A DNA stretch of 59,799 nt, from the IMG/VR virus record IMGVR_UViG_3300025694_000005, positions 1-59,799 of that record; one strand, written 5' to 3'. A model generated the notes under the pieces. The model saw only the letters and a program-made list of their open reading frames with translations, did no database searches and was not told the DNA's origin. Below are positions 303 to 56,995 of this stretch, one piece after another. Origin of the DNA: a virus. Lineage: Duplodnaviria; Caudoviricetes. The number at the start of each line of letters is the position of its first letter. Positions within the stretch are counted from its first letter, which is position 1. The position numbers and the translations under genes were made by a program.

Positions 303-680
303 ATGTTAGAGATAATATGTGTTGCCCTAGCGGTTTACTTCGAAGCCCGAGGTGAATCGCTAGAAGGCCAACGTGCCGTAGCTTCTGTGGTGTGGAATCG
401 TCGCAATGACGAGAGATGGCCCAACCATACCTGTGAAGTAGTAGCTCAGAAAGGTCAGTTTGAAAGCTGGCCTCTCATTAAATCTGAATTTCCTAGACTC
501 TATGGAGCGGAATATTTAGACCTCCCACCAAACGAGAGTATGAAAATCGCTCTTGCCCATGCGTCATATACAGCAGAGACGCCAACCACACCAGCATTGT
601 TTTTCGCTACACCCAACCTATTAAACTACAAAGAGCTAGAAATAATAGGAAATCACGTTTTTTATACCACACACGACTAG
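303..680 (+). CDS. cell wall hydrolase, SleB/Hydrolase_2 family
   Basis: YFEARGE, GQRAVASVVWNR, QFES and IGNHVFY motifs. Confidence 0.9.
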   Translation: MLEIICVALAVYFEARGESLEGQRAVASVVWNRRNDERWPNHTCEVVAQKGQFESWPLIKSEFPRLYGAEYLDLPPNESMKIALAHASYTAETPTTPALFFATPNLLNYKELEIIGNHVFYTTHD

Positions 681-846
681 AACAGGTTTTTCCACTCCAG
701 CGGGGCCGGGGCACATCTATCGACTAGAGGAAATCCTTCCTTGGACGTAAAAATCAGTACAAATCTTCCTTAAATTTACAGTAATCTCTTAGTTTTCCAG
801 TAAAAAGGGAGTGTAAATTTAATGAATATAACTCGACCCTTAAACT

Positions 847-893
847 TAAAAGACCGCATAGCCTACTTGGTTGAAGTAGAAACATGCGGTCTT
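847..893 (-). terminator. intrinsic terminator-like hairpin
   Basis: 10-bp stem 850-859/884-893 plus 6-bp inner stem 863-868/874-879, followed by a U-rich tract on the minus strand. Confidence 0.55.
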
Positions 894-4208: not shown

Positions 4209-4407
4209 AATTATCCTCCGCTATATTCATTATAGCGCTCTTGTTCAGTAACACTTCTTGACCGTTTGGCTGTAAGTATTTTATGAACTTATTTTCATTA
4301 TTCATTATCCAATGTAAGGCTTCTTTCGGTGGCATTGTTAGTGCTTCTTCACCGAGTAAAGACCCGTAGATAGTATTTCCACTTATAGTGACTATTCGTA
4401 CTTTCAT
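4201..4407 (-). CDS. hypothetical protein
   Basis: Likely start MKVRIV (GGAGG RBS, ATGA overlap). Confidence 0.6.
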   Translation of the reverse strand: MKVRIVTISGNTIYGSLLGEEALTMPPKEALHWIMNNENKFIKYLQPNGQEVLLNKSAIMNIAEDNYD

Positions 4408-4484
4408 AAGAAGATCATACCTCCTATCAGTCCGACAATTAAGCCGAACGTACAAAAAACTACTAATTTTTTAGTGTAGCTCAT
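4404..4484 (-). CDS. single-TM peptide (26 aa)
   Basis: MSYTKKLVVFCTFGLIVGLIGGMIFL; GGGGAA RBS. Confidence 0.5.
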   Translation of the reverse strand: MSYTKKLVVFCTFGLIVGLIGGMIFL

Positions 4485-4511
4485 TCAGTTCCCCCTGCTG
4501 AGACTAGTTTT

Positions 4512-5042
4512 TTACTCCCTCCCTGAACCTCCTGACGCTGTAGGTTCTAGCTTATCAAAATCAAATGATGCTAGTGGATTATCTAGTACTGCTTGTATTT
4601 TCATGTTCAGTCTATCTTCCAGAGCATTGATTTTAATTTCCGTATCTGTTTGTAAACTCTCCCTTTTGTTATCAAAGCGCTCATCTGCTTTGTCAATCAT
4701 GTCTTTTACTTTGTCTTCTAGTTCTCTATTCTGATCTTCAACTCTATCAACATTTGCTTCCATACGATTGAAGTCATCTCGTAAATCATTCTTGATGCTT
4801 CGTGAGTAGTCTATTGCTTCATCAACAGATCCTTGAGCCGCAGCAATTTTTTGTTCTATAATTTTATTGCGGTTCTCTATCTGCGTGGTGTCAATGTTAG
4901 CCACAATTTCTTTCATGTCCATGTAGTCAGCATAGAATTCAAAGGCACCCCAACTTGCTCCACCTAACGTAGAGAGAGCAGTGAGAAGAACCATCATCTT
5001 ACCACCTTTAAATGTCATGCCCCCAAACTCTACTTCTGCCAT
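4512..5042 (-). CDS. membrane-anchored coiled-coil protein
   Basis: N-terminal hydrophobic helix followed by a heptad-rich region. Confidence 0.7.
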   Translation of the reverse strand: MAEVEFGGMTFKGGKMMVLLTALSTLGGASWGAFEFYADYMDMKEIVANIDTTQIENRNKIIEQKIAAAQGSVDEAIDYSRSIKNDLRDDFNRMEANVDRVEDQNRELEDKVKDMIDKADERFDNKRESLQTDTEIKINALEDRLNMKIQAVLDNPLASFDFDKLEPTASGGSGRE

Positions 5043-5461
5043 TATTTTTTCCAGAACTTACCTTGAATGAGTTTCTTTACTACAACTAGAGGGTTATAGT
5101 AAAATTTATATTCCCACTTATACTGTGCGTAATCTTTTTCATATATGCTACGCGGAGTCCACTCTTTCTTCCAGTTGTCGACCAATAATCCTTCGTATTC
5201 TAGTACTGCATGACCACCATCCACATAACTAATAAAGCAAATCTTAATCTTTTTTGTGAGAATCATCCAAAGAAACTTCATACGACTCTGCCCTGCAAGC
5301 ATCCAGCCTACAGTAAGTGCATAATCTTCACAATCTCCTTGGTCTTTATCCTGACTCATATCAAGTACACGCCAATAGTCAGCAACTTGATACTGATCAC
5401 TATCGTACTGATATTCAAATACGTTGTTTACTTTAGCAACCGCTTCTACTTTATCCATCAT
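5042..5461 (-). CDS. transglutaminase-like cysteine peptidase (BTLCP/Peptidase C93, LapG-like)
   Basis: DYW...GDCEDYA...HAVL...VDN Cys-His-Asp triad. Confidence 0.85.
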   Translation of the reverse strand: MMDKVEAVAKVNNVFEYQYDSDQYQVADYWRVLDMSQDKDQGDCEDYALTVGWMLAGQSRMKFLWMILTKKIKICFISYVDGGHAVLEYEGLLVDNWKKEWTPRSIYEKDYAQYKWEYKFYYNPLVVVKKLIQGKFWKK

Positions 5462-5879
5462 CGTCCTCGAATTTTAATGCTCTTAGGTTATTTACCTCTT
5501 GCTGTAATTTTTGTAGTTCTATTCTCTGTCTTGTCAGCTCCAATTTATAAAGCTGATTACAATCTAATCTCGTTTTCGGTGCATTGAGTGGTATGATAAT
5601 CTTCGCATACACTCCAACATCTTTTACTAAACCTTCCTCATCGTAGTCTTCTGAGTAGCTCCCTATATTGCTAGTGTAGGGCCCATTCTGATTTAGAACT
5701 CCGACTACACCAAACTCTAAATTCACGCTTCCGCCAATCGCCATGGAACACTCGACGTTGCCATTTGTTCTTATTCTATCACTCGCATAAGAACCCGGAG
5801 TGCTAGGTAAATTTAAATTCAAAGAACTAGAGTCCGCCATTGCGTAAGCTGACACTAGCATTAATAATATAAATCTCAT
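5451..5879 (-). CDS. secreted protein, Cys pair and C-terminal coiled coil
   Basis: Signal peptide MRFILLMLVSAYAMA. Confidence 0.7.
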   Translation of the reverse strand: MRFILLMLVSAYAMADSSSLNLNLPSTPGSYASDRIRTNGNVECSMAIGGSVNLEFGVVGVLNQNGPYTSNIGSYSEDYDEEGLVKDVGVYAKIIIPLNAPKTRLDCNQLYKLELTRQRIELQKLQQEVNNLRALKFEDDDG

Positions 5880-6247
5880 TTAACTTTTGAACAAATCCTA
5901 GAAGATACGGATGTTTTTGCTGTACCTGTTACAACCAATTTTGATTTTGAACAGATGAAAACCACTTCTTCCTTGTCCTTCTCCCTTATGTAAATGTCAA
6001 CCTTCTTTTTTTCAAGGTGTTTGAAACGCATAACTTTCTGCTGCATAGCAAAGGGTACTTTCTCCCACTCCGCATTAAAAACACCAAACTCATAATACTC
6101 TACATCTTTTCGCATATTGAAAAGGGTCATTGTAGTATATAATACACCCTCAACGTAAGAATTTTTCAACTTTGGATAAGTTGGGGTGAATTCATGGGCA
6201 CTTGCGTACCCACTCATCACCAGTAATAAAATTAGATAGCGATGCAT
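5876..6247 (-). CDS. secreted protein, possible fimbrial chaperone-like Ig fold
   Basis: Signal peptide ...GYASA; FTPT...TMTLFN pattern reminiscent of PapD N-domains; two Cys. Confidence 0.55.
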   Translation of the reverse strand: MHRYLILLLVMSGYASAHEFTPTYPKLKNSYVEGVLYTTMTLFNMRKDVEYYEFGVFNAEWEKVPFAMQQKVMRFKHLEKKKVDIYIREKDKEEVVFICSKSKLVVTGTAKTSVSSRICSKVK

Positions 6248-6720
6248 TCAGCACTTACTATCGCACGATATACGCCGCCAGGAAATGCTTTGCCGTAGCC
6301 ATAATCTGCTTGTGATTCTGTTTTGAACCAGGTGCTACCAGCAACGGTCAAACTGAATTCAGTAACATTATCAAACTCAACCTTTGCTGCGTCATACCCA
6401 GACATGCCAGTATCTGATACTTGAGATGTAGCAACGTCGCCCGTCCATACTACAGTGTCATTCAATGTAGGTGATTCCGAAAAGGATGTAGGATACGAAA
6501 TCCTAGCTTTATAGCTGCTCGCTTCAATTACGTCAAATCGAACGACAGGATCAACTCCACCGTCCGTAGGATCAGTGCTTAACACATCTGATGTTGGGTT
6601 ACCAAATACACCTGCGGTATCAGGAGTTACTACACATTTCGAAGCAACATTCCCTACTACTTCCATTTCCTCCGCTTGCGCACTAAAGGCGCAAAATAGT
6701 AAAATAACTAATTTTTTCAT
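6232..6720 (-). CDS. secreted protein, possible fimbrial/pilin subunit
   Basis: Signal peptide ...FSAQA; VVGNVASKCVV N-terminus and GGVYRAIVSAEC C-terminal strand, as in chaperone-usher pilins. Confidence 0.6.
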   Translation of the reverse strand: MKKLVILLFCAFSAQAEEMEVVGNVASKCVVTPDTAGVFGNPTSDVLSTDPTDGGVDPVVRFDVIEASSYKARISYPTSFSESPTLNDTVVWTGDVATSQVSDTGMSGYDAAKVEFDNVTEFSLTVAGSTWFKTESQADYGYGKAFPGGVYRAIVSAECIAI

Positions 6721-6745
6721 AATAGAGTTCCCCCTCTATACTCTG

Positions 6746-7618
6746 TCAATCATACTGCGATTGAACCATTTTTTGGTGCAAAAGTTGCTGCGCAAAGTTT
6801 ACACGGCGACCATTTGCATTGTCAGGTAGGTCAGAATCTTTCAGCATCTCTGCATCCGGATACTCTCCCCCTTTTATTTGCCCAAAGTAACCTCTAGGCA
6901 AATAATTCGTTGACACTAATGCGTTATGCAATAATGTATCTTGTGCTTCTTGTAGGCTTGCTCCGAGGGATAAACCTAACATCTTCTCTAAACTATCTCT
7001 TACTTTCTCTTCAGTGGCTTTAGCAAATTTCTCTCGTTCTTCCTTCTCTTCTTCCTCTTTCTGTGCTTTCATGTTCGTTTCACGATCTAACTCTGCCTGA
7101 ATATACTCTTCACTCGAGGTATCTATTTCAGGCTCTTGAATTAGCGTGAGCGGGTCAATATAACCTGGGCATTCTGGGTCCGACTGAGGATTATCACACG
7201 GAACATACTGATATGTGTAATAAACCTCTGGATCTAAAACTGTTCCGAAGCCTTCCACTTCGATAGAACCATCACCCCAAAAATCAATTCCTATACCCCC
7301 TACAGGAATTGTTTTGTTAATCGTATTGCCTGGCAAACCTGACCAGTCGTCTGTGCTTCTAAAGATATATCCGTTTCCTTGAGCATTCTCATTTTGAACG
7401 TGAACCAACATATCATCTTCTGGGTCTTTCTCAGTGGTATATCTATAGATTACATTGTTTACGGTCAATCCTGTCGCTTGTGGTAAGATATTAGACATGA
7501 CCCAATTCAACCCAATATTCGCGGCGTTGGTGGTTGTTCCGTATACCTCTTCGCTAGAGTACGAGTAAGAGCAGTAGGCTAACAACACCGGCACTACCCA
7601 TGAGTGTCTTAGTACCAT
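6746..7618 (-). CDS. secreted protein with acidic coiled-coil region
   Basis: Likely start MVLRHSWVVPVLLAYCSYSYS (signal-like); CDNPQSDPECPGY. Confidence 0.7.
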   Translation of the reverse strand: MVLRHSWVVPVLLAYCSYSYSSEEVYGTTTNAANIGLNWVMSNILPQATGLTVNNVIYRYTTEKDPEDDMLVHVQNENAQGNGYIFRSTDDWSGLPGNTINKTIPVGGIGIDFWGDGSIEVEGFGTVLDPEVYYTYQYVPCDNPQSDPECPGYIDPLTLIQEPEIDTSSEEYIQAELDRETNMKAQKEEEEKEEREKFAKATEEKVRDSLEKMLGLSLGASLQEAQDTLLHNALVSTNYLPRGYFGQIKGGEYPDAEMLKDSDLPDNANGRRVNFAQQLLHQKMVQSQYD

Positions 7619-8120
7619 CACCGAGTCCTTTTTCCTTTTCTTCCGTCGTTTCATCCACGGACGGTTCCAGTTCCTCATTTGCTGCCCAAGCTGCTTTTGC
7701 TTCATTGCCAATCAAACCTTCGAAAGGACAAGGAGTTCCAGCCATTAGCATTGCGTCGAATACTCGTTCATCCTGACACAGTGTAGATACTGCTGCAACT
7801 TTCATTCCCATATCATACAGAGTTTTCGAAAGTTTTAACCGCTCACAGTTTGAATCAGTTATCTGAGAACCCATAGAGATACCCAGAATCTGCGTCTGAA
7901 CAGCCCCCGCAACTCCAAAAGTACACAAATCGCTGTTTGAAGTGTTGATAGTAGGCGTAATAGCAGACGCAGGAGGGGCTCTTAAAGTTGTTGATGTATC
8001 TGATCTTGTAGTAACCGTACTATTAGTAGTAGAGTCAGTACGAATAGTATTGTCCTCAATAATCGGGGCTTCTTCCGCAAATACGGGGAAGGCTAGTAGT
8101 AACAGTAAAATTCTTATCAT
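7554..8120 (-). CDS. secreted Cys-containing protein with C-terminal membrane anchor
   Basis: Signal peptide MIRILLLLLAFPVFA; four Cys; ends GVVSLLLLLVL. Confidence 0.75.
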   Translation of the reverse strand: MIRILLLLLAFPVFAEEAPIIEDNTIRTDSTTNSTVTTRSDTSTTLRAPPASAITPTINTSNSDLCTFGVAGAVQTQILGISMGSQITDSNCERLKLSKTLYDMGMKVAAVSTLCQDERVFDAMLMAGTPCPFEGLIGNEAKAAWAANEELEPSVDETTEEKEKGLGDGTKTLMGSAGVVSLLLLLVL

Positions 8121-8843
8121 TTATTGGTCTCTTAAATAGTTATGTAAAACTATATCAAAATTAATAGTACAAATACTGTTTCCGCTACTGCCTGTAGCAC
8201 GAAAATCAATATCAGTTCGTGGGGGTAATTCCAACGGTACACTAAATTCTTGTCTCTGAACGCTTTGATAGATATCCATCTCACTTTTTATACGAAAAGC
8301 CCCTGTAGCTTTTTCTCTTACATAAAGCTCTATAAGAGCATCATCTAGTTTACCTACGCCAGCCGTATACGAGACCAAATAGCCAATACACCCTTCAGGA
8401 ACTGTATAAACCCCTAACAATGTTTGAGCTTTACCCACTGGAATTTGTGCAACGACTGTTCCTGCGTGGCTTACCGTCTTCGCGGAAATAACCCCAGTAT
8501 TTGTCTCGCTATAAGTCATTCTATAAACCCTGCGAAAAGTGAGGGTAGTAGCAACTTCAGAAGGGCTTCCACCCAGATCCACAGTTTCTTTTTGTGTCTT
8601 CCAACTTGCTCCCAGACCTTCTATAGTAATATTTCCACCATCCGCTGCATCAGAACTAGAAACATAAATTATTTCGGGATTAGTTAAAGCGCTCCATGGA
8701 TATAGACCTCCGGCAGACCAAATACTTTCCGCAGATCCTCCTATTGCCGAATTCGATCCAAACTTATGAACATGAGTCCAAAATTTCCCATCAGTTCGTT
8801 TTTTAGTAGCAGAGAAACCGTTTATTCCTAGTATCATTACCAT
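8121..8843 (-). CDS. hypothetical phage protein (beta-rich, possibly virion-associated)
   Basis: 240 aa packed ORF, G/S/T-rich. Confidence 0.65.
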   Translation of the reverse strand: MVMILGINGFSATKKRTDGKFWTHVHKFGSNSAIGGSAESIWSAGGLYPWSALTNPEIIYVSSSDAADGGNITIEGLGASWKTQKETVDLGGSPSEVATTLTFRRVYRMTYSETNTGVISAKTVSHAGTVVAQIPVGKAQTLLGVYTVPEGCIGYLVSYTAGVGKLDDALIELYVREKATGAFRIKSEMDIYQSVQRQEFSVPLELPPRTDIDFRATGSSGNSICTINFDIVLHNYLRDQ

Positions 8844-9145
8844 TTCACCTTATTGGCCCAGTACGCTGCGGACAACTTCCCTCTGGCGATGTTAGCTGCA
8901 TGACGGGCTTTAAATGAACGACGACGAGCAGCAGCTGCCTTGGACTCACCCGCTTTCTTGGGAGAACCTGAGACACCTTGCTGACCGAATCGAATTGTTT
9001 TTACCTTGCCGCCAGCTTTTGCTACGACAACATGGGATTTTTTGGGATGCTTGGGAGTTCTTTTTGGTTTATTGAAACCAGAAACTCCTGCTCTTTTAAG
9101 GCGGGGATCTTTCTTTCTAACGCTTCTTCGTTTTTTTGCTGCCAC
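8837..9145 (-). CDS. highly basic conserved phage protein
   Basis: KTIRFGQQG...SFKARH...SAAYWANKVKW. Confidence 0.75.
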   Translation of the reverse strand: MAAKKRRSVRKKDPRLKRAGVSGFNKPKRTPKHPKKSHVVVAKAGGKVKTIRFGQQGVSGSPKKAGESKAAAARRRSFKARHAANIARGKLSAAYWANKVKW

Positions 9146-9281
9146 TTTTCTTTCTCTTCTTCTTAAACCCTGCTTTCATCAGGGAATAAGCTTTGGGCGA
9201 GATAGTAGACTTTTTCTTCGTTCTACTAGTACCCTTCTTTTTTCGGCGGTTTATATTTGCATACAATCCACGAGCAGCCAT
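9117..9281 (-). CDS. very basic small protein (54 aa), not in ORF track
   Basis: MAARGLYANINRRKKKGTSRTKKKSTISPKAYSLMKAGFKKKRKKSGSKKTKKR; TAATG coupling. Confidence 0.7.
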   Translation of the reverse strand: MAARGLYANINRRKKKGTSRTKKKSTISPKAYSLMKAGFKKKRKKSGSKKTKKR

Positions 9282-9409
9282 TATTTACGTTTCTTCTTTG
9301 ATTTTTTCTTTTTCTTCATGTTCTTCATGAAAGACATTGGCAGCTTTTGCTTACCTTTTTTGGCGGGACGACCTCTTTTTTTACCGTAAGTACCTTTTCC
9401 TGCTGGCAT
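9281..9409 (-). CDS. very basic AT-hook peptide (42 aa), not in ORF track
   Basis: MPAGKGTYGKKRGRPAKKGKQKLPMSFMKNMKKKKKSKKKRK; GGAG RBS. Confidence 0.7.
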   Translation of the reverse strand: MPAGKGTYGKKRGRPAKKGKQKLPMSFMKNMKKKKKSKKKRK

Positions 9410-9546
9410 GTATAAACTCCGTTTATAAAGCTCTGCGCAACCATTGGCGCAATACATTTACCACATTTTGAACCCACCTTATCAATAAGGGACGGGTCTC
9501 TTTCTAAGTCTTTAGTTGATATATTATTGCAAATACATACATACAT
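9325..9546 (-). CDS. Bfd-like [2Fe-2S] ferredoxin
   Basis: MYVCICN...CGKC; GAGG RBS. Confidence 0.75.
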   Translation of the reverse strand: MYVCICNNISTKDLERDPSLIDKVGSKCGKCIAPMVAQSFINGVYTCQQEKVLTVKKEVVPPKKVSKSCQCLS

Positions 9547-9560
9547 AAAGACCTCTAAAA

Positions 9561-10066
9561 TAGGCGGGGGCGCGTTACGCTTTAAGGCTGATTGCTCACC
9601 CCCAGGTGTTCGATGAGGTGTAGTGCTTCTTCGGGGAAGTCTTATCTACTCCATGACAGTTTGCCTCATCTCAGAAATAGTGGCCTTTTATTATCAGGAA
9701 AAAAGCCTTAAAACCTACACCCGGATTAGATCCTTTTGATTAACGTGGCGTGCATACACGGAGATGGTCTACGAGTTCTCTTCTCGGCAGGGGTTTATGT
9801 TTTAACGTCGTCTCTAGCCTGAAAGACTCGACGTGCCCATAGGAATCGGTACCAGTTTATGGGGCAACGGGGTCATTAGCTCCCCAAGGGCAGTTTATAT
9901 CCGCATCGGACTGCCTGCCGAAGAGTCACTTATCGTAGCAACTACGCCGTCTAACTAGGAGGAAGTTAGAATCCTCCACTCATTTACGCCTGAGGGGTAT
10001 GGGCGATACTCCAAATAACTAGGGGGTATCTCTAGTGGATTTTTAAAGAGCTTCCTCTCTTTTATG
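9561..10066 (-). ncRNA. candidate large structured ncRNA (~500 nt), class unknown
   Basis: GC-richer, ORF-free; own promoter and boxA; many nested helices and candidate pseudoknots (see findings). Confidence 0.75.
10041..10051 (-). promoter_or_regulatory. boxA-like antitermination element
   Basis: GCTCTTTAAAA versus rrn boxA TGCTCTTTAACA, ~15 nt after the predicted TSS. Confidence 0.6.
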
Positions 10067-10072
10067 AATACA

Positions 10073-10101
10073 ATTATAACGGTAAATAGGTTAAGTGTCA
10101 A
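10073..10101 (-). promoter_or_regulatory. sigma70 promoter
   Basis: TTGACA-N17-TATAAT with AAAAAATAG UP element. Confidence 0.9.
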
Positions 10102-10114
10102 GAACTATTTTTTA

Positions 10115-10300
10115 TTAACTGTCGAAAAAATCATCATAATTTGGGTAAGGTATCTCAAACTCAAACATTTCTCCAATATCATTTGTTACGGTATAAGTAA
10201 AAGTAGCAGTGTCAAAACTGTCATTTACTACTACAGAGATTGCTCTCTGTTTAGCTTTCTTATACTTTGCGAAATCAATAATATTAGAAGTAGTCTTCAT
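10115..10300 (-). CDS. hypothetical protein
   Basis: 61 aa, NIIDFAKYK motif. Confidence 0.6.
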   Translation of the reverse strand: MKTTSNIIDFAKYKKAKQRAISVVVNDSFDTATFTYTVTNDIGEMFEFEIPYPNYDDFFDS

Positions 10301-10541
10301 CAGTTCCGAATCCTGCGGAGGCTAATGCGTCTCCGTCCCAATCAAATAAATCATTGTCTCCATCATTGTAACCTTCTTCAATACGAATTTCGTTTACAAT
10401 AACTTGTTGGACTAACTCCCACGCATAATCTGCGCTAATTGAAAGCTGAACAGAAATTTCTGCTGCCATCTCTTCAGGTTCTTCGTCCCACATTGCTAAA
10501 ACAATGCTTTCTGCTTCCTGATACAACCTATCCATCATCAT
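10284..10541 (-). CDS. acidic hypothetical phage protein
   Basis: C-terminal DGDALASAGFGTDEDY motif. Confidence 0.7.
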   Translation of the reverse strand: MMMDRLYQEAESIVLAMWDEEPEEMAAEISVQLSISADYAWELVQQVIVNEIRIEEGYNDGDNDLFDWDGDALASAGFGTDEDYF

Positions 10542-10915
10542 ACTTGTTTCTCTTTGTAATCCTTTATCGCAGCTTTTATAGCATCTTCTGCTAATACGCT
10601 ACAATGAATCTTAACAGGTGGAAGTGCAAGTTCATTAGCTAAGTCCGTATTTTTTATATTACCCGCCTCTTCTAAGCTCTTACCCTTTACCCACTCACTT
10701 AATAGTGAGCTGGAAGCAATAGCGCTTCCACACCCATAAGTTTTAAATTTAGCGTCTAAGATAATATTATCTTCTACGTCTATCTGTAGAACCATTACGT
10801 CACCGCACGAAGGCGCACCCACTAAGCCCGTGCCAACAGTCTGGGAATCTTTGTCGAGTTTTCCCACATTCCGTGGGTTTTCATAATGATCCATAACCTG
10901 TTCGCTGTATGCCAC
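10538..10915 (-). CDS. iscU: Fe-S cluster scaffold IscU
   Basis: YSEQVMDHYENPRNVG, CGD, GCGSAIASSS and LPPVKIHC. Confidence 0.95.
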   Translation of the reverse strand: MAYSEQVMDHYENPRNVGKLDKDSQTVGTGLVGAPSCGDVMVLQIDVEDNIILDAKFKTYGCGSAIASSSLLSEWVKGKSLEEAGNIKNTDLANELALPPVKIHCSVLAEDAIKAAIKDYKEKQV

Positions 10916-11492: not shown

Positions 11493-11521
11493 ATTATACT
11501 GGCAAAGAGGATTCTTGTCAA
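11493..11521 (-). promoter_or_regulatory. sigma70 promoter
   Basis: TTGACA-N17-TATAAT. Confidence 0.9.
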
Positions 11522-12273: not shown

Positions 12274-12302
12274 ATTATACGGGCTAAAGCTTCTTGTGTC
12301 AA
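12274..12302 (-). promoter_or_regulatory. sigma70 promoter
   Basis: TTGACA-N17-TATAAT. Confidence 0.85.
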
Positions 12303-15849: not shown

Positions 15850-15878
15850 ATTATACGATGTTAAGGCTTTTATGTCAA
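15850..15878 (-). promoter_or_regulatory. sigma70 promoter (leftward member of a divergent pair)
   Basis: TTGACA-N17-TATAAT. Confidence 0.9.
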
Positions 15879-34242: not shown

Positions 34243-34271
34243 TTGACACGGGAGCTATTTCCCCGTATAAT
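34243..34271 (+). promoter_or_regulatory. sigma70 promoter
   Basis: TTGACA-N17-TATAAT. Confidence 0.9.
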
Positions 34272-52939: not shown

Positions 52940-54010
52940 TTAGTAGGTTCCGCCGTCTATGGAGTTTGTCCATGTTGGAGTTCCTGAGCTATTTACACTC
53001 AGAATTTGTCCTACAAGATTTGTTCCGTCCCAAGTACCTGCTGGAGTAACCTGCAGAGCATTAGCAGCATTTCCATATACAATACCATTAGAAGTAAAAG
53101 TAGAAACTCCAGTACCACCATATTGAACAGCTAAATCAGTTGATAACTCTAAAGAGCCAAAAATAGCTTTACCTGTGGCACCTGACATAAGATTGCCAGT
53201 GTTGGTAGAGTTAGGAATAAAAGTAAAAGCTTCCTCACTATCATCAAATCCGAAAAAGCCTGTTTTAGCTGTACCGTCATGCCACTTAAACTCAATACCT
53301 CTATCTAAGTTATCTTCGGAGGCTTGGTCTCCGTCTCCGCCTACAGTAAAAATAGGATCGTCAATTGTTACAGTAGTAGAGTTAACGGTAGTAGTAGTTC
53401 CATTAACCGTGAGGTTGCCTGTAATAGTAACATTTTCCGCCAAACCTACACGAATAGTATTGTCTGCCGAGACTTCTGTAACTACTTCATTCGTAGTACC
53501 TACAACACTAAGACTTTCTGATAGAAGAGCAATAGCAGCGTCAAAGGTTCCAGCATTACTATCGGCTAAAAAGTTAAGAGTAGTGGCAATAGTTGTTTCG
53601 CTGGCAGCACTAATCCTTCCTTTCGCATCTACAGTAAAACTCGGGATAGCGGTGCTGGACCCATAAGTTGCTGCCGATACTCCGGTATCTGTAAGAGAAA
53701 ATTCTAAATTAATATCACTTTGTGTGAGTAGTATAGAAGATGCTAATCCATCTGCTCCTGCAGCATAAGTAGACACACCTCCAGCACCAGTAATCTCTAC
53801 AGAAGCTGCTTCGATTAAGTTAGTATAATATTCACCACCTACTATTTTAGGGTTATTTGTTGGAGAGTTAGGATCACCGATAAATAGCTTTTTGCCGTAG
53901 CCTCCTGTGTTAGACCCAGCAGTATCATAGGCATAAACTAGCTCGCCTTGTCCAACACTCGCAGGTTTTGTACTACCTGTAGTACGTTTAATTTGTATAG
54001 TATTTGCCAT
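52940..54010 (-). CDS. tail fibre/baseplate-associated protein
   Basis: IQIKR...GELVY, GNLTVNGTTTTVNST and IDGGTY end. Confidence 0.8.
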   Translation of the reverse strand: MANTIQIKRTTGSTKPASVGQGELVYAYDTAGSNTGGYGKKLFIGDPNSPTNNPKIVGGEYYTNLIEAASVEITGAGGVSTYAAGADGLASSILLTQSDINLEFSLTDTGVSAATYGSSTAIPSFTVDAKGRISAASETTIATTLNFLADSNAGTFDAAIALLSESLSVVGTTNEVVTEVSADNTIRVGLAENVTITGNLTVNGTTTTVNSTTVTIDDPIFTVGGDGDQASEDNLDRGIEFKWHDGTAKTGFFGFDDSEEAFTFIPNSTNTGNLMSGATGKAIFGSLELSTDLAVQYGGTGVSTFTSNGIVYGNAANALQVTPAGTWDGTNLVGQILSVNSSGTPTWTNSIDGGTY

Positions 54011-54022
54011 TTTTACTTACTC

Positions 54023-54364
54023 CTAGTAAGAGCCTGCGTCTAAGTTATCTGAAGTTTCTGATTCGTTACTCACAATTATGGGCACCCAATCGAATACTCC
54101 GACGCTAGTTTCTCGATAAACTTTAAGCTGATCGTCATTTGTATCATACCAAAGATCACCTTCTTGAACATTAGGTCCAGTAGGCTCTTCGTCCGTTCGA
54201 TAGCTTTGGTCTGCTAATTGTTCCAAAGCTGTCTGTAAATCTGTTGCTGTTAATGGACCATATGGAGTTACTTGCACAACACCACCGACTAAACCACTTG
54301 AGTTTGCTATTTCCAAACTATCCATAAGAATTTTATTATTTTGATTGTCTAAAGTAATAGCCAT
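54023..54364 (-). CDS. tail-associated protein
   Basis: ATDLQTALEQLAD, EGDLWYDT and LDAGSY. Confidence 0.7.
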   Translation of the reverse strand: MAITLDNQNNKILMDSLEIANSSGLVGGVVQVTPYGPLTATDLQTALEQLADQSYRTDEEPTGPNVQEGDLWYDTNDDQLKVYRETSVGVFDWVPIIVSNESETSDNLDAGSY

Positions 54365-55134
54365 TAGAAGTTCACCTCTGTATATTGTACTTCGGCAGCC
54401 CACTTCGTTGGATTAGTAGTTGCTGCGGTTACTTCTAACTTTAAAGAATCATTCACATCGTCTGCAGTAATACTAACATCAAAGGCTGCGTTATCTTTGC
54501 CCAGTATAGTTTTTCCTACACTCCCGATAATTTGTGTAGTTGTTAAATCTTTCTTTAACGCTCCATATAATTGAAAGGCACAAGCTTCGCCCGTGGTATT
54601 ATCTCTTCCTATAATTAAGGCATCGAAGGATAGTACTCCTTCGTCAACTATAAAATATCTAGAATTAAGTATTCCACCTTCGAATATTTCAGTAGGAGAT
54701 GTGGAAGTAGTTTCTCCTGAGTATAAGATCTTGCCTGCGGCGGAAACAACTATAGCAGAACTTCCAGCATAATTCGCAGTTCTAGTAACATCGGCCTTTA
54801 CTCTTAATTTACCTATTAATAGAGTACTAATAACTCCAGTACTCGATACTTCCTGTAAATCGTAATTATAAGTGGCTGGAACTAAAGAGTCAGTCATACC
54901 AGAAGGAATCGACATTACTACCTTACCAAGAGGGGCATTAACTCCTGAAACCGCTATAGGGCCATACTGTAGTTCTGCACCGGGGTCTGTTAAGTCCACA
55001 GAGGACTTGAGCGTAAACCAGTACTGGTTTCCGGTAATATCTATAATCGCCCCAGTTGAATCTTGCATAAGAAACTCAAGATTCCAAGTATCACCACGAG
55101 CTTGAGCAGTTAAATCTTGTTGAATATATGACAT
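54364..55134 (-). CDS. BppU-like baseplate/tail protein
   Basis: RGDT...IDITG...YNYDLQ N-terminal domain. Confidence 0.7.
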   Translation of the reverse strand: MSYIQQDLTAQARGDTWNLEFLMQDSTGAIIDITGNQYWFTLKSSVDLTDPGAELQYGPIAVSGVNAPLGKVVMSIPSGMTDSLVPATYNYDLQEVSSTGVISTLLIGKLRVKADVTRTANYAGSSAIVVSAAGKILYSGETTSTSPTEIFEGGILNSRYFIVDEGVLSFDALIIGRDNTTGEACAFQLYGALKKDLTTTQIIGSVGKTILGKDNAAFDVSITADDVNDSLKLEVTAATTNPTKWAAEVQYTEVNF

Positions 55135-55328
55135 TAAAATGCTCCTTCTACGTCTAGCGACGAAACTTCTACTGATACTACTTCTATGGTTGCTACGGGC
55201 ACTGTTTCTATAATATCTACATTTAGCTGTCCTTCATCAAGAGTTAGTGTCTCATTAATATAATTATTAATTCCGAAAGTTCCTCTAAACCCTCTTGTTG
55301 CTATAGATAACCTTCTCTGTGCTGTCAT
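55134..55328 (-). CDS. small hypothetical protein
   Basis: TAATG coupling on both sides. Confidence 0.6.
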   Translation of the reverse strand: MTAQRRLSIATRGFRGTFGINNYINETLTLDEGQLNVDIIETVPVATIEVVSVEVSSLDVEGAF

Positions 55329-56995
55329 TATGGATTCACAAAAGGCGTAGCACCTTCATCATAGTTTCGGTCTGCAATCTGAAAGAGTGATATAGAAGTA
55401 TCCAGACTTGAAGATAAAGTTATATCAGTTTTAAAATAATTATATTCTACATTTACGGCAATTATTCTTACTCCCCCTGCCTGCGTAGTAGTATTATAAT
55501 TAAAAACTGCTTGATATTTTGTATTTCCTCCTGCATCTGTATAACTTGTAACAGTATCAAAAGTACTTGATGTGGGAGGAGACCCAGATAACTCTACGCC
55601 TGCTAATTCTGTGTATGTTGTTGGATCATTTATATCTGTATATGAGTATACCCGAACTTCAGAATCTACTACTATATTATCAATAGTAAGTGTTTTAGAA
55701 CTAACAATAGTCGTGGAAGCTCCTGTCCCATTACGAATAGTATAATTGGCTGAATTTCCTCCAGAAACAGTAAGCGTAAGAGACCCTCCAGTATTATTAT
55801 AAATTGCAGCAGAATTACTTGCATTTGCTCCATAACCTGAAAATTCTATATTAGTTAAGGTTGCGGCAGAACCAGAAGTAAATTCAATTGCATGACCGCT
55901 ACCCTCTTGTTTAAAAGTAACATCATGAATTCCGCTAGTAATTCCGAAAGTAGCGTCATCTATCACTGCTACCTGAGTGGCTGTTCGGGTTCTAATCTCA
56001 CAGTTTTTAATTTCACTTCCGCCTTGAGTAATATTTGCTGTATCTAAAACTCCCCCATCGAATGTGCAGGTTGACGTAAAATCTACTGTTCTCATACCTA
56101 GTAACGTGCAGTTGGTTATAGTAGCGGAGCCACTGGTTCCTGTAAAAATTAAGTCGGGTCTTGTAACTGCTCCGGTAGGATTACCTGCCCCTACTGTAGA
56201 ACCTGTTAGAGAATAAGTAGTAGAGGCGTTACCTAAATTAATCGTTTGTCCCATAAAATCAGTTGTAACCAAAGGTTGATTTGGGAAAATTACAGTGATA
56301 TTTGAATCACTATACGTAGTGGCTACTGGAGTTGCTGCCGCGGCATCTGAAGCGCCAATTATCAACCTAGCTTGACAGAAATAAATACCAGACTTTTCTT
56401 GAAGAACTCCTTTCAGCCCCGTTGAAGTATTTTGTTCGGCAGTAAGAACTTGACCAATGTTAGAAGTACCTGTCAGAGAATATCCAGCAGTACCGTAAAA
56501 AGATGCATCTGCTTGTACGTTCTTCAAGTTACCTGCAGTATTTCCCATAACAGCATAAATACCCACACCATTTACTGCTGTTAAGGTTGGGGTATTTGTT
56601 ACTGCACCATCAGCTGTTCTCGTTACATCAACCCATACAGGTATAAAACCCCCTTGAGTTAAAGGAAATTGAGCGGAAGGTACATCATGATATGCGTCTT
56701 GATTATTGCCGCTTGTAATAACAACTTGATAATTAGTAACAAGAGACCAAGTAATGGATCCCATCCATAAAACTAAGTGAGTACCTGTAGCACTTAAATT
56801 TGCCGACCCGCCAGCTCCTGTACTTACTGTCCATCCTAGAGAATTATTATCGATACGTCGCGATACAGCTTGGTCTCCTTGAAGAAATAGATCCTCATCA
56901 GTACCTGCACCCTGACCACCACCAATATTGGAAATGGAAACTGTATCAGTAGTGTCAACAGTATTATAAGTAGCTAAAAGATTTGTAGCGGTCAT
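55328..56995 (-). CDS. virion structural protein, possible beta-helix
   Basis: 555 aa, T/G/S-rich, within the tail block. Confidence 0.65.
   Translation of the reverse strand: MTATNLLATYNTVDTTDTVSISNIGGGQGAGTDEDLFLQGDQAVSRRIDNNSLGWTVSTGAGGSANLSATGTHLVLWMGSITWSLVTNYQVVITSGNNQDAYHDVPSAQFPLTQGGFIPVWVDVTRTADGAVTNTPTLTAVNGVGIYAVMGNTAGNLKNVQADASFYGTAGYSLTGTSNIGQVLTAEQNTSTGLKGVLQEKSGIYFCQARLIIGASDAAAATPVATTYSDSNITVIFPNQPLVTTDFMGQTINLGNASTTYSLTGSTVGAGNPTGAVTRPDLIFTGTSGSATITNCTLLGMRTVDFTSTCTFDGGVLDTANITQGGSEIKNCEIRTRTATQVAVIDDATFGITSGIHDVTFKQEGSGHAIEFTSGSAATLTNIEFSGYGANASNSAAIYNNTGGSLTLTVSGGNSANYTIRNGTGASTTIVSSKTLTIDNIVVDSEVRVYSYTDINDPTTYTELAGVELSGSPPTSSTFDTVTSYTDAGGNTKYQAVFNYNTTTQAGGVRIIAVNVEYNYFKTDITLSSSLDTSISLFQIADRNYDEGATPFVNP

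Follow-up and report, generated by a model that had tools for sequence, protein, structure and literature searches.

What does a phage transcribe from some 500 nt of DNA that hold a strong promoter and no gene? The stretch in question lies at positions 9547–10101 of a 59.8-kb virus record from IMG/VR (IMGVR_UViG_3300025694_000005), which was analysed at full length and is called the window here. A preliminary description of the same DNA had proposed a single noncoding RNA (ncRNA) of about 500 nt with long-range helices and several pseudoknots. Large, ornate phage RNAs of no known job, such as GOLLD and ROOL, have long puzzled the field, and their families are few so far. We find that the stretch is best explained as two independent RNAs, a reading to which we give a probability of roughly 0.6: RNA-L, an ncRNA of about 390 nt (~10066–9681, minus strand) that would act early and in trans, and motif M, a 125-nt element (9551–9675, minus strand) that would serve in cis as a leader or processing module. 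The locus is conserved, its helices covary, promoters precede its units, it is absent from Rfam, and it is present in RNA libraries.

A noncoding stretch with its own promoter

All features of RNA-L and M given below are on the minus strand. Upstream of RNA-L stands a sigma-70 promoter at 10073–10101 (−35 TTGACA at 10101–10096, −10 TATAAT at 10078–10073) that agrees with the consensus at 12 of 12 letters around a 17-nt spacer, just as the preliminary description had read it. This promoter is kept in 21 of 21 close homologs, and the RNA start site probably lies near 10066. The lack of genes likewise holds: no open reading frame (ORF) longer than 48 aa overlaps 9547–10101 on either strand, except for the edge of a plus-strand ORF of 112 aa (10064–10402). 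The stretch is also richer in GC, as described, with 0.46–0.51 inside against 0.30–0.42 in the flanks.

Homologous loci were fetched through the flanking NifU protein and the downstream basic protein. Full-length homologs of RNA-L occur at 14 loci with 90–99% identity, and 28 distinct sequences are available when metagenome loci are included; an alignment of 21 distinct window-type sequences (A5) was used for the helix counts. The RNA-L core (10000–9750) is 94–98% identical to that of locus L015, and the neighbouring genes are 58–92% identical. Homologs differ in this stretch by insertions and deletions of 1, 2 and 7 nt and share no common frame, and it is therefore non-coding. Folding energy sets RNA-L apart from the locus as a whole: the whole 516 nt do no better than shuffled sequences (z −1.44, 12 of 100 shuffles as good; opposite strand z −1.33), but RNA-L alone (9676–10066) beats all 100 shuffles (z −2.72).

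Conservation of this kind could also belong to a DNA-level element (an origin, packaging or operator site) or to a decayed gene, with no RNA made. The core loop of RNA-L is quasi-palindromic around GGUACC and the minimum free energy of the whole region is no better than that of shuffles, as this explanation would have it. However, the compensatory changes, with their G-U intermediates, are compatible with only one of the two strands, RNA-L lies between a consensus promoter and terminators in several lineages, the indels and the missing frame argue against coding, and the stretch reaches high depth in an RNA library; we regard a DNA element or a decayed gene as very improbable. Integration-site (attP) and DNA-palindrome readings were set aside, the G-U and compensatory changes fitting the RNA strand. 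The idea of a conserved, structured, minus-strand ncRNA with its own strong promoter is supported. Its extent as a single RNA of about 500 nt is not: in relatives a terminator, then a small ORF and another promoter-like leader come between the 5′ portion of 390 nt and the 3′ portion of 125 nt, and the latter is also found alone.

RNA-L is best described by local helices

The first structured element of RNA-L is a 5′ hairpin (10045–10061). Nine letters after the promoter, which equal the core of the E. coli boxA, had been read as a boxA-like element, but the exact GCTCTTTAA is present in only 4 of 21 close homologs. These letters form the 3′ strand of the hairpin and change among homologs; unlike a boxA, they are replaced elsewhere while the hairpin stays; in 13 of 21 sequences it is built from different letters and its register is shifted (by eye).

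The hairpin is followed by an H-type pseudoknot, PK-A (10005–10036), in which stem S1 (10036–10032/10022–10018) is crossed by S2 (10030–10023/10012–10005). S2 contains two covarying pairs among close homologs, and both stems are retained with different letters in all five long RNA-L types. PK-A is not among the pseudoknots of the preliminary description, and it is the one that the comparative data support.

Several hairpins follow towards the 3′ end. The first (9958–9977, stem 9977–9972/9963–9958) is complementary and invariant in 21 of 21 sequences, and two competing helices that had been proposed here as a tight pseudoknot or switch (9958–63/9972–77 and 9950–56/9964–70) never vary among homologs. 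The hairpin at 9890–9914 (9914–9910/9894–9890, with an inner 3-bp stem) is unbroken in all 21 and kept in the more distant X and Y types described below (by eye); its inner stem shows one G-C to G-U change among the 21. At the centre of the molecule, the core hairpin (9834–9865) pairs 9863–9858 with 9841–9836, adds two outer pairs and encloses a 16-nt loop (9857–9842) centred on GGUACC. All seven of seven RNA-L types can form it; C-G pairs of the stem are exchanged for A-U among them, and the 16-nt loop is conserved. This loop (9842–9857) is quasi-palindromic around GGUACC and becomes a perfect 14-nt palindrome in the X type, which could allow loop–loop dimerisation or extension of the stem.

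A variable hairpin adjoins the core (9805–9834). Its outer stem (9834–9829/9810–9805) is invariant in the window group, its inner part carries a 7-nt insertion in 2 of 21 sequences, and the X and Y types have no such hairpin (neither L193 nor L221 contains it). A local hairpin at 9772–9786 (9786–9783/9775–9772) is invariant in the 21 sequences, carries a compensatory U-A in place of A-U in L233 and L221 (by eye), and competes with the nested long-range helices of the preliminary description. In the next hairpin (9744–9760, stem 9760–9757/9747–9744) both letters of a U-A pair change, giving C-G, in 2 of 21. RNA-L closes with a terminator-like hairpin (9682–9707, stem 9707–9700/9689–9682) and a U-rich tail; the hairpin is always paired in the 21 sequences and resembles the hairpin after the transfer-messenger RNA (tmRNA) gene of L249. 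In the window it is A-U-rich and is not called by a consensus terminator scan. Between these elements, 9720–9790 is the most variable part of RNA-L among homologs, and contigs of three RNA runs break there, either through strain variation or at an RNA end.

The local-helix model of RNA-L and M together (87 pairs, over sequences at least 90% identical) is 99.3% paired, includes six covarying pairs and is reached by none of 500 shuffles, with the limits that the model derives from the same sequences and that the slid control flatters it. The twelve helices listed in the preliminary description, all fully complementary in the window, fare differently on the 21 distinct homologs. One covaries, three are broken by natural variation, and the remaining eight do not vary and are neither supported nor refuted. 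Among their 75 pairs only two covary, and both belong to 9612–18/9664–70, which is P1 of motif M. The nested helices 9747–51/9944–48 and 9784–91/9914–21 each have one pair that is unpaired, in 11 and 20 of the 21 sequences respectively, and the X and Y types do not carry one strand of the latter. Within the 3′ domain, 9612–18/9664–70 holds up, but 9581–89/9704–12 includes pairs that are open in 6 and 4 of the 21 sequences. The nested and the 3′ long-range helices are thus contradicted both by variation and by relatives that lack one strand. A consensus 3′ domain drawn by RNAalifold from 11 close sequences was contradicted by the wider family and was not used.

Motif M is a separate covarying element

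Motif M folds as a three-stem hairpin followed by an acceptor-like helix. The stems P1 (9670–9664/9618–9612), P2 (9649–9646/9623–9620) and P3 (9639–9636/9629–9626) covary. The acceptor-like helix would pair GGGGG (9603–9599) with CCCCC (9570–9566) around two small hairpins, one of them a mini-hairpin at 9580–9578/9574–9572. Unpaired letters stand out as well: UAAGAC in an internal loop (9644–9639), UUAAAG (9585–9580) and the tail RCCUA (9565–9561), of which UAAGAC, UUAAAG and the CCUA tail are invariant. The C-rich strand is followed by a purine, 0–2 nt and CC, and the eight-letter tails vary. In outline, the helix and tail look like an acceptor stem with a discriminator and CC.

By BLAST, three distant contigs share only the last ~33 nt of this element, yet they carry a 150-nt version of the 3′ domain ahead of a homologous Cys-rich ORF. 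A first, strict pattern recovered only 16 contigs that were already known; a gapped pattern of the invariant letters gave 35 IMG/VR loci, and a second pattern gave 60 metagenome and 7 genome loci. A covariance model (R1) built from six sequences then returned 66 instances of M (34 distinct): it recovered every one of the 18 loci known before, confirmed 48 of the 60 from metagenomes and confirmed none of the 7 from genomes. Some of the 12 metagenome loci that R1 leaves unconfirmed may be divergent members. R1 found no M in the 79 loci fetched through the downstream basic protein, and a search for M in 151 genomes of one bacterial class gave a single weak match, a coding sequence without the invariant letters.

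Across the 34 distinct sequences, 12 of the 23 pairs in P1, P2 and P3 change on both sides, a covariation score that none of 500 shuffles reaches. Pairing holds in 98.6% of cells, against at most 53.5% when the partners are slid, and 14 G-U cells fit the minus strand only. Each of the two small inner hairpins has one covarying position. HDV-like, hammerhead and twister folds were compared with M by eye and rejected, as neither the strand order nor the core letters fit; Rfam is silent on all of them here.

RNA-L and M are uncoupled in related phages

Relatives of RNA-L of ~130–470 nt, each with its own promoter, are present in five other phage lineages, and a pattern for the core loop has 27 matches in IMG/VR, 23 of them true contigs. 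So far the family of 130–470-nt RNAs is found only in this phage group. The X type (L192, L193, L204, L220 and L233) has a core that is 73% identical by BLAST with the 5′ part of the stretch. Its units run in the order consensus promoter, 5′ hairpin, pseudoknot, core, 10-bp terminator with U-tract, small ORF, conserved leader, M. More divergent versions with their own promoters occur in L221 (Y type) and in L079 and L197 (Z types), and the Y type also has the 10-bp terminator stem and U-tract. In L227 a leader of ~70 nt stands between RNA-L and M, and L277 and L249 have a minimal RNA-L of ~130 nt in one operon with M and a tmRNA.

Without RNA-L, and behind its own consensus promoter and two hairpins, M is found in L190, L194, L196, L198 and L271; in L205 and L221 it follows a conserved leader downstream of RNA-L. 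We conclude that RNA-L and M are two separate units, because they are split in the X types and L227 and because M stands alone in other lineages.

A word of ~12 nt resembling AATAGTTCTTG precedes M in the X and Y types (just upstream of M in L250 and L205). In the window such a word forms the −35 region of the RNA-L promoter (10096–10107, minus strand), and a similar one stands just before P1 of M. It may be a trace of unit rearrangement.

RNA-library cover and the single-transcript alternative

The stretch is present, as contigs without strand, in RNA libraries of four studies, among which six RNA runs contain 52% or more of the sampled words. Summed over contigs, depth in run X19 reaches ~54,000–56,000 on 9808–9951 and ~4,400–10,900 in adjoining bins, compared with 608 on 10024–10599 and ~300 on 9448–9735. 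The RNA-L core therefore lies ~100-fold above its flanks, and depth falls ~180-fold from the core to M, a hint that the core is far more abundant than neighbouring RNAs. Parts of the stretch without cover in X18 and X19 were not counted as evidence.

Could window positions 10066–9551 nevertheless yield one RNA of ~520 nt, with M as a 3′ tRNA-like domain? In each of the 21 window-type sequences M follows RNA-L directly, with a weak terminator between them, RNAalifold pairs a C-rich run of RNA-L with the G5 run of M, and single RNA-library contigs span both (X19 record 21 and X10 record 2). The uncoupling in other lineages speaks against it, as do the helix that would tie RNA-L to M, which is broken in up to 6 of 21 sequences and has no partner strand in relatives, and the ~180-fold drop in X19. 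We hold a single RNA to be unlikely and keep to two units.

Motif M, permuted tmRNA genes and tRNA-like features

In relatives, the RNA-L family sits in an 'RNA island' beside permuted tmRNA and tRNA genes. The genes after M differ between lineages. The Cys-rich ORF comes next in the window group and in three further lineages, and an operon of very basic small proteins in L190, L194, L196, L198, L271, L205 and L221; in L230 and in L249/L277 M directly abuts a permuted two-piece tmRNA gene. A tmRNA follows the Cys-rich ORF in L079, L197 and L250 (ARAGORN; Rfam RF04321/RF01849). A comparison of L230:1564–1980 with L079:5502–6121 shows that the Cys-rich ORF between M and the tmRNA is deleted in L230. 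Because M abuts the tmRNA gene there, this ORF is dispensable for the arrangement.

At the sequence level, the coding piece of the L079 tmRNA starts with the same seven letters as the G-rich 5′ strand of the acceptor-like helix, and in L249 the tail of M adjoins the first model position of the tmRNA. The X-type contig L193 carries two permuted tmRNA genes (6623–6873 and 670–847, minus strand; 115.6 and 94.4 bits to RF04321) beside RNA-L and M. ARAGORN and Rfam, which detect the tmRNAs of L079, L197, L230, L249, L250 and L193, find none in the window; ARAGORN reports no gene at all there, in line with the earlier statement that tRNA and tmRNA are missing.

Is RNA-L itself a very divergent tmRNA, or its coding piece? 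Its invariant core contains a frame reading ANDPVAP-stop (window 9853–9876, minus strand), which recalls proteobacterial tags; in the X type it reads ANDPIAP through two base changes, so that a similar residue is kept, true tmRNAs lie nearby in relatives, and the same terminator-like hairpin follows the L249 tmRNA. Yet only the W and X types have the frame, and one X-type sequence (L237) has Q at its end; RNA-L has no acceptor, T-arm or D-loop-like part, and ARAGORN and all Rfam tmRNA models are silent. We rejected the tag idea because the frame is lost in the Y, Z and V types and because X-type phages carry RNA-L in addition to two true tmRNA genes; a hidden tmRNA seems scarcely credible.

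For M, a riboswitch-like or protein-binding cis-regulator deserves more weight. UAAGAC and UUAAAG would then form a ligand or protein pocket, with the G5/C5 helix as part of an expression platform. The conservation is indeed aptamer-like, with covarying stems around invariant unpaired letters, and in most contexts M lies 10–25 nt before the ribosome-binding site of the next ORF. There is also a precedent in the glutamine riboswitch that accompanies a two-piece tmRNA in phage Melnitz (PMC9004378). On the other hand, the genes after M (Cys-rich ORF, basic proteins or tmRNA) share no theme, the helix is followed by variable eight-letter tails and no conserved U-tract or terminator, the ribosome-binding site is unsequestered in all folds of M examined, and no M turned up in the 151 bacterial genomes searched, an unusual pattern if it sensed a metabolite. 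A regulator is possible but doubtful on this evidence. We narrowly favour M as a candidate tRNA-like processing signal because of its acceptor-like helix, its purine-CC tail and its position at the start of the L249 tmRNA precursor.

Relation to known RNAs

Neither RNA-L nor M matches a described RNA family. A search of the whole window against the 4227 families of Rfam 15 at gathering thresholds gave no match, so no Rfam family covers the stretch, and RNA-L and M of five relatives gave nothing at E up to 5. At blastn sensitivity, GenBank phages contain no match to the window region, and neither RNA-L nor M was seen in any cultured phage. The matches of L079 were limited to 43 nt of its tmRNA (in Pelagibacter phage Mosig), and those of L196 to the basic-protein gene (in roseophages, cyanophages and pelagiphages). 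Literature searches brought up phage two-piece tmRNAs and no prior description of either RNA, with supplements not covered and absence not proven.

GOLLD and ROOL are associated with tRNA genes. RNA-L resembles them in being phage-borne, several hundred nucleotides long and set beside tRNA-type genes, with conserved helices and a pseudoknot. In contrast, it matches neither in Rfam, is shorter (130–470 nt), and has a shared core of a pseudoknot and one hairpin; for GOLLD and ROOL themselves, structures by cryo-electron microscopy are the subject of a preprint (10.1101/2024.12.08.627333).

The permuted two-piece tmRNA of marine phages (RF04321/RF01849/RF01850; gene forms are covered in PMC11915505) shares the island and the strong early promoters. 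M in particular shares the first seven letters of the L079 coding piece in its 5′ strand and has a purine-CC after its 3′ strand. Unlike a tmRNA, neither RNA-L nor M scores with tmRNA models or ARAGORN, and neither has a T-arm, a G3-U pair or a conserved tag frame.

M may also be likened to tRNA-like processing elements, such as those of tRNA punctuation and of mascRNA-type 3′-end formation. As in these, the acceptor-like helix of M would stack on a small hairpin through a continuous 3′ strand, a purine-CC follows the helix, and the element is placed between two functional RNAs; it differs in having no T-loop or D-loop letters. The comparison of M with RNase P substrates draws on general substrate properties. 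The glutamine riboswitch attached to ssrA of phage Melnitz (PMC9004378) likewise couples a structured cis-RNA to a two-piece tmRNA gene, but it lies on the 3′ side of ssrA and belongs to a known Rfam family, whereas M lies 5′ of the tmRNA and belongs to none.

Proposed roles of RNA-L and M

In the model that we propose, RNA-L would be transcribed strongly and early from its own promoter as a stand-alone RNA and would act in trans as an abundant, stable molecule, most likely in the sphere of translation or tRNA processing served by its tmRNA and tRNA neighbours. The acceptor-like helix of M may be recognised by tRNA-processing enzymes (RNase P and 3′ trimming), and processing at M would cut the upstream RNA from the downstream mRNA or tmRNA precursor. 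The window lineage appears to have lost the ORF and the second leader that separate RNA-L from M in relatives. As these are lost and the terminator is weak, read-through may give a fused RNA-L/M precursor.

A number of points weigh against this model. The RNA-library data are Logan contigs, which come without strand or ends, and the X19 peak, which lies where conservation is highest, may owe something to the pooling of related strains there. Depth is flat in three other RNA runs, and X10 has a single 2.9-kb contig across the whole region, for which DNA carry-over or polycistronic RNA is possible. Because the RNA-L terminator is weak and uncalled, a single transcript of ~520 nt is possible in the window. 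The pair coordinates across RNA-L types were placed by eye. For M, the alignment was fitted to its own model, which favours it, although the pairs are plain in the raw sequences all the same; the G5/C5 helix is invariant, so its pairing is only predicted; and folding energy alone does not set M apart (z −0.91, 38 of 200 shuffles as good). A T-arm-like hairpin is missing from M, the third pair of its acceptor-like helix is G-C and not G-U, and Rfam, tRNA and tmRNA models included, finds nothing in 9400–10250 at E up to 10. The functions given to both RNAs are drawn from their neighbourhood only.

A bolder proposal, which we consider a long shot, takes RNA-L and M together as a phage system not seen before that bears on ribosome rescue or tRNA processing, with M as a pared-down, non-chargeable mimic of the tmRNA acceptor stem and RNA-L as its abundant pseudoknotted partner or as a decoy. 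M might then compete for tmRNA- and tRNA-processing factors, or be cut out as a mini tRNA-like RNA of ~50 nt, and RNA-L might have evolved next to the two-piece tmRNA of the phage and, in the window lineage, in place of it.

The locus adds two further RNA families, each with covariation, in an abundant group of marine T5-like phages. Both are accessible to experiment, given their consensus early promoters, their tmRNA and tRNA neighbours, and an RNA-L that may far outnumber neighbouring mRNAs in one metatranscriptome. The acceptor-like helix poses a concrete biochemical question, whether RNase P cleaves it, and the natural series of RNA-L from 130 to 470 nt points to a minimal functional core. 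Should M prove to be a processing signal, it would reveal how multi-RNA precursors, permuted tmRNAs among them, are cut in phages; should it prove to be a sensor, it would be a regulatory RNA that is new and confined to phages.

The phage and its neighbouring genes

The window comes from an uncultured marine T5-like phage. The record has a completeness estimate of 59% and encodes large genes of tailed phages (a DnaB-like helicase, a family-A DNA polymerase, a ribonucleotide reductase, an SbcC-like nuclease and tail fibres), and the polymerase shares ~43% identity with its counterparts in the T5-like phages of Enterobacter, Vibrio and Providencia. Near-consensus sigma-70 promoters (TTGAC-N-TATAAT) number 13 in the window on both strands, against 0.31 expected; beyond that of RNA-L, examples lie at 2500–2528, 11493–11521, 12274–12302, 15850–15878 and 34243–34271. 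Many near-consensus promoters are typical of the early regions of T5-type phages.

Upstream of the gene-free stretch is a gene for a NifU/IscU-like Fe-S scaffold protein (10538–10915, minus strand; Pfam E 3.6e-50), which has close relatives in at least 496 IMG/VR stretches; two small ORFs are also among the neighbours on this side. Directly downstream of M, the ORF list has a small Cys-rich ORF of 73 aa with a CxC...CxxC pattern (9325–9546, minus strand), whose relatives are present in 13 loci. It has no match in Pfam or PHROG, and it may resemble BFD-like [2Fe-2S] domains. An operon of very basic, K/R-rich small proteins lies 3′ of M (window 8837–9457, minus strand; L196:2725–3702; L079:6114–6677) and includes PHROG 7595, which is known also in roseophages, cyanophages and pelagiphages.

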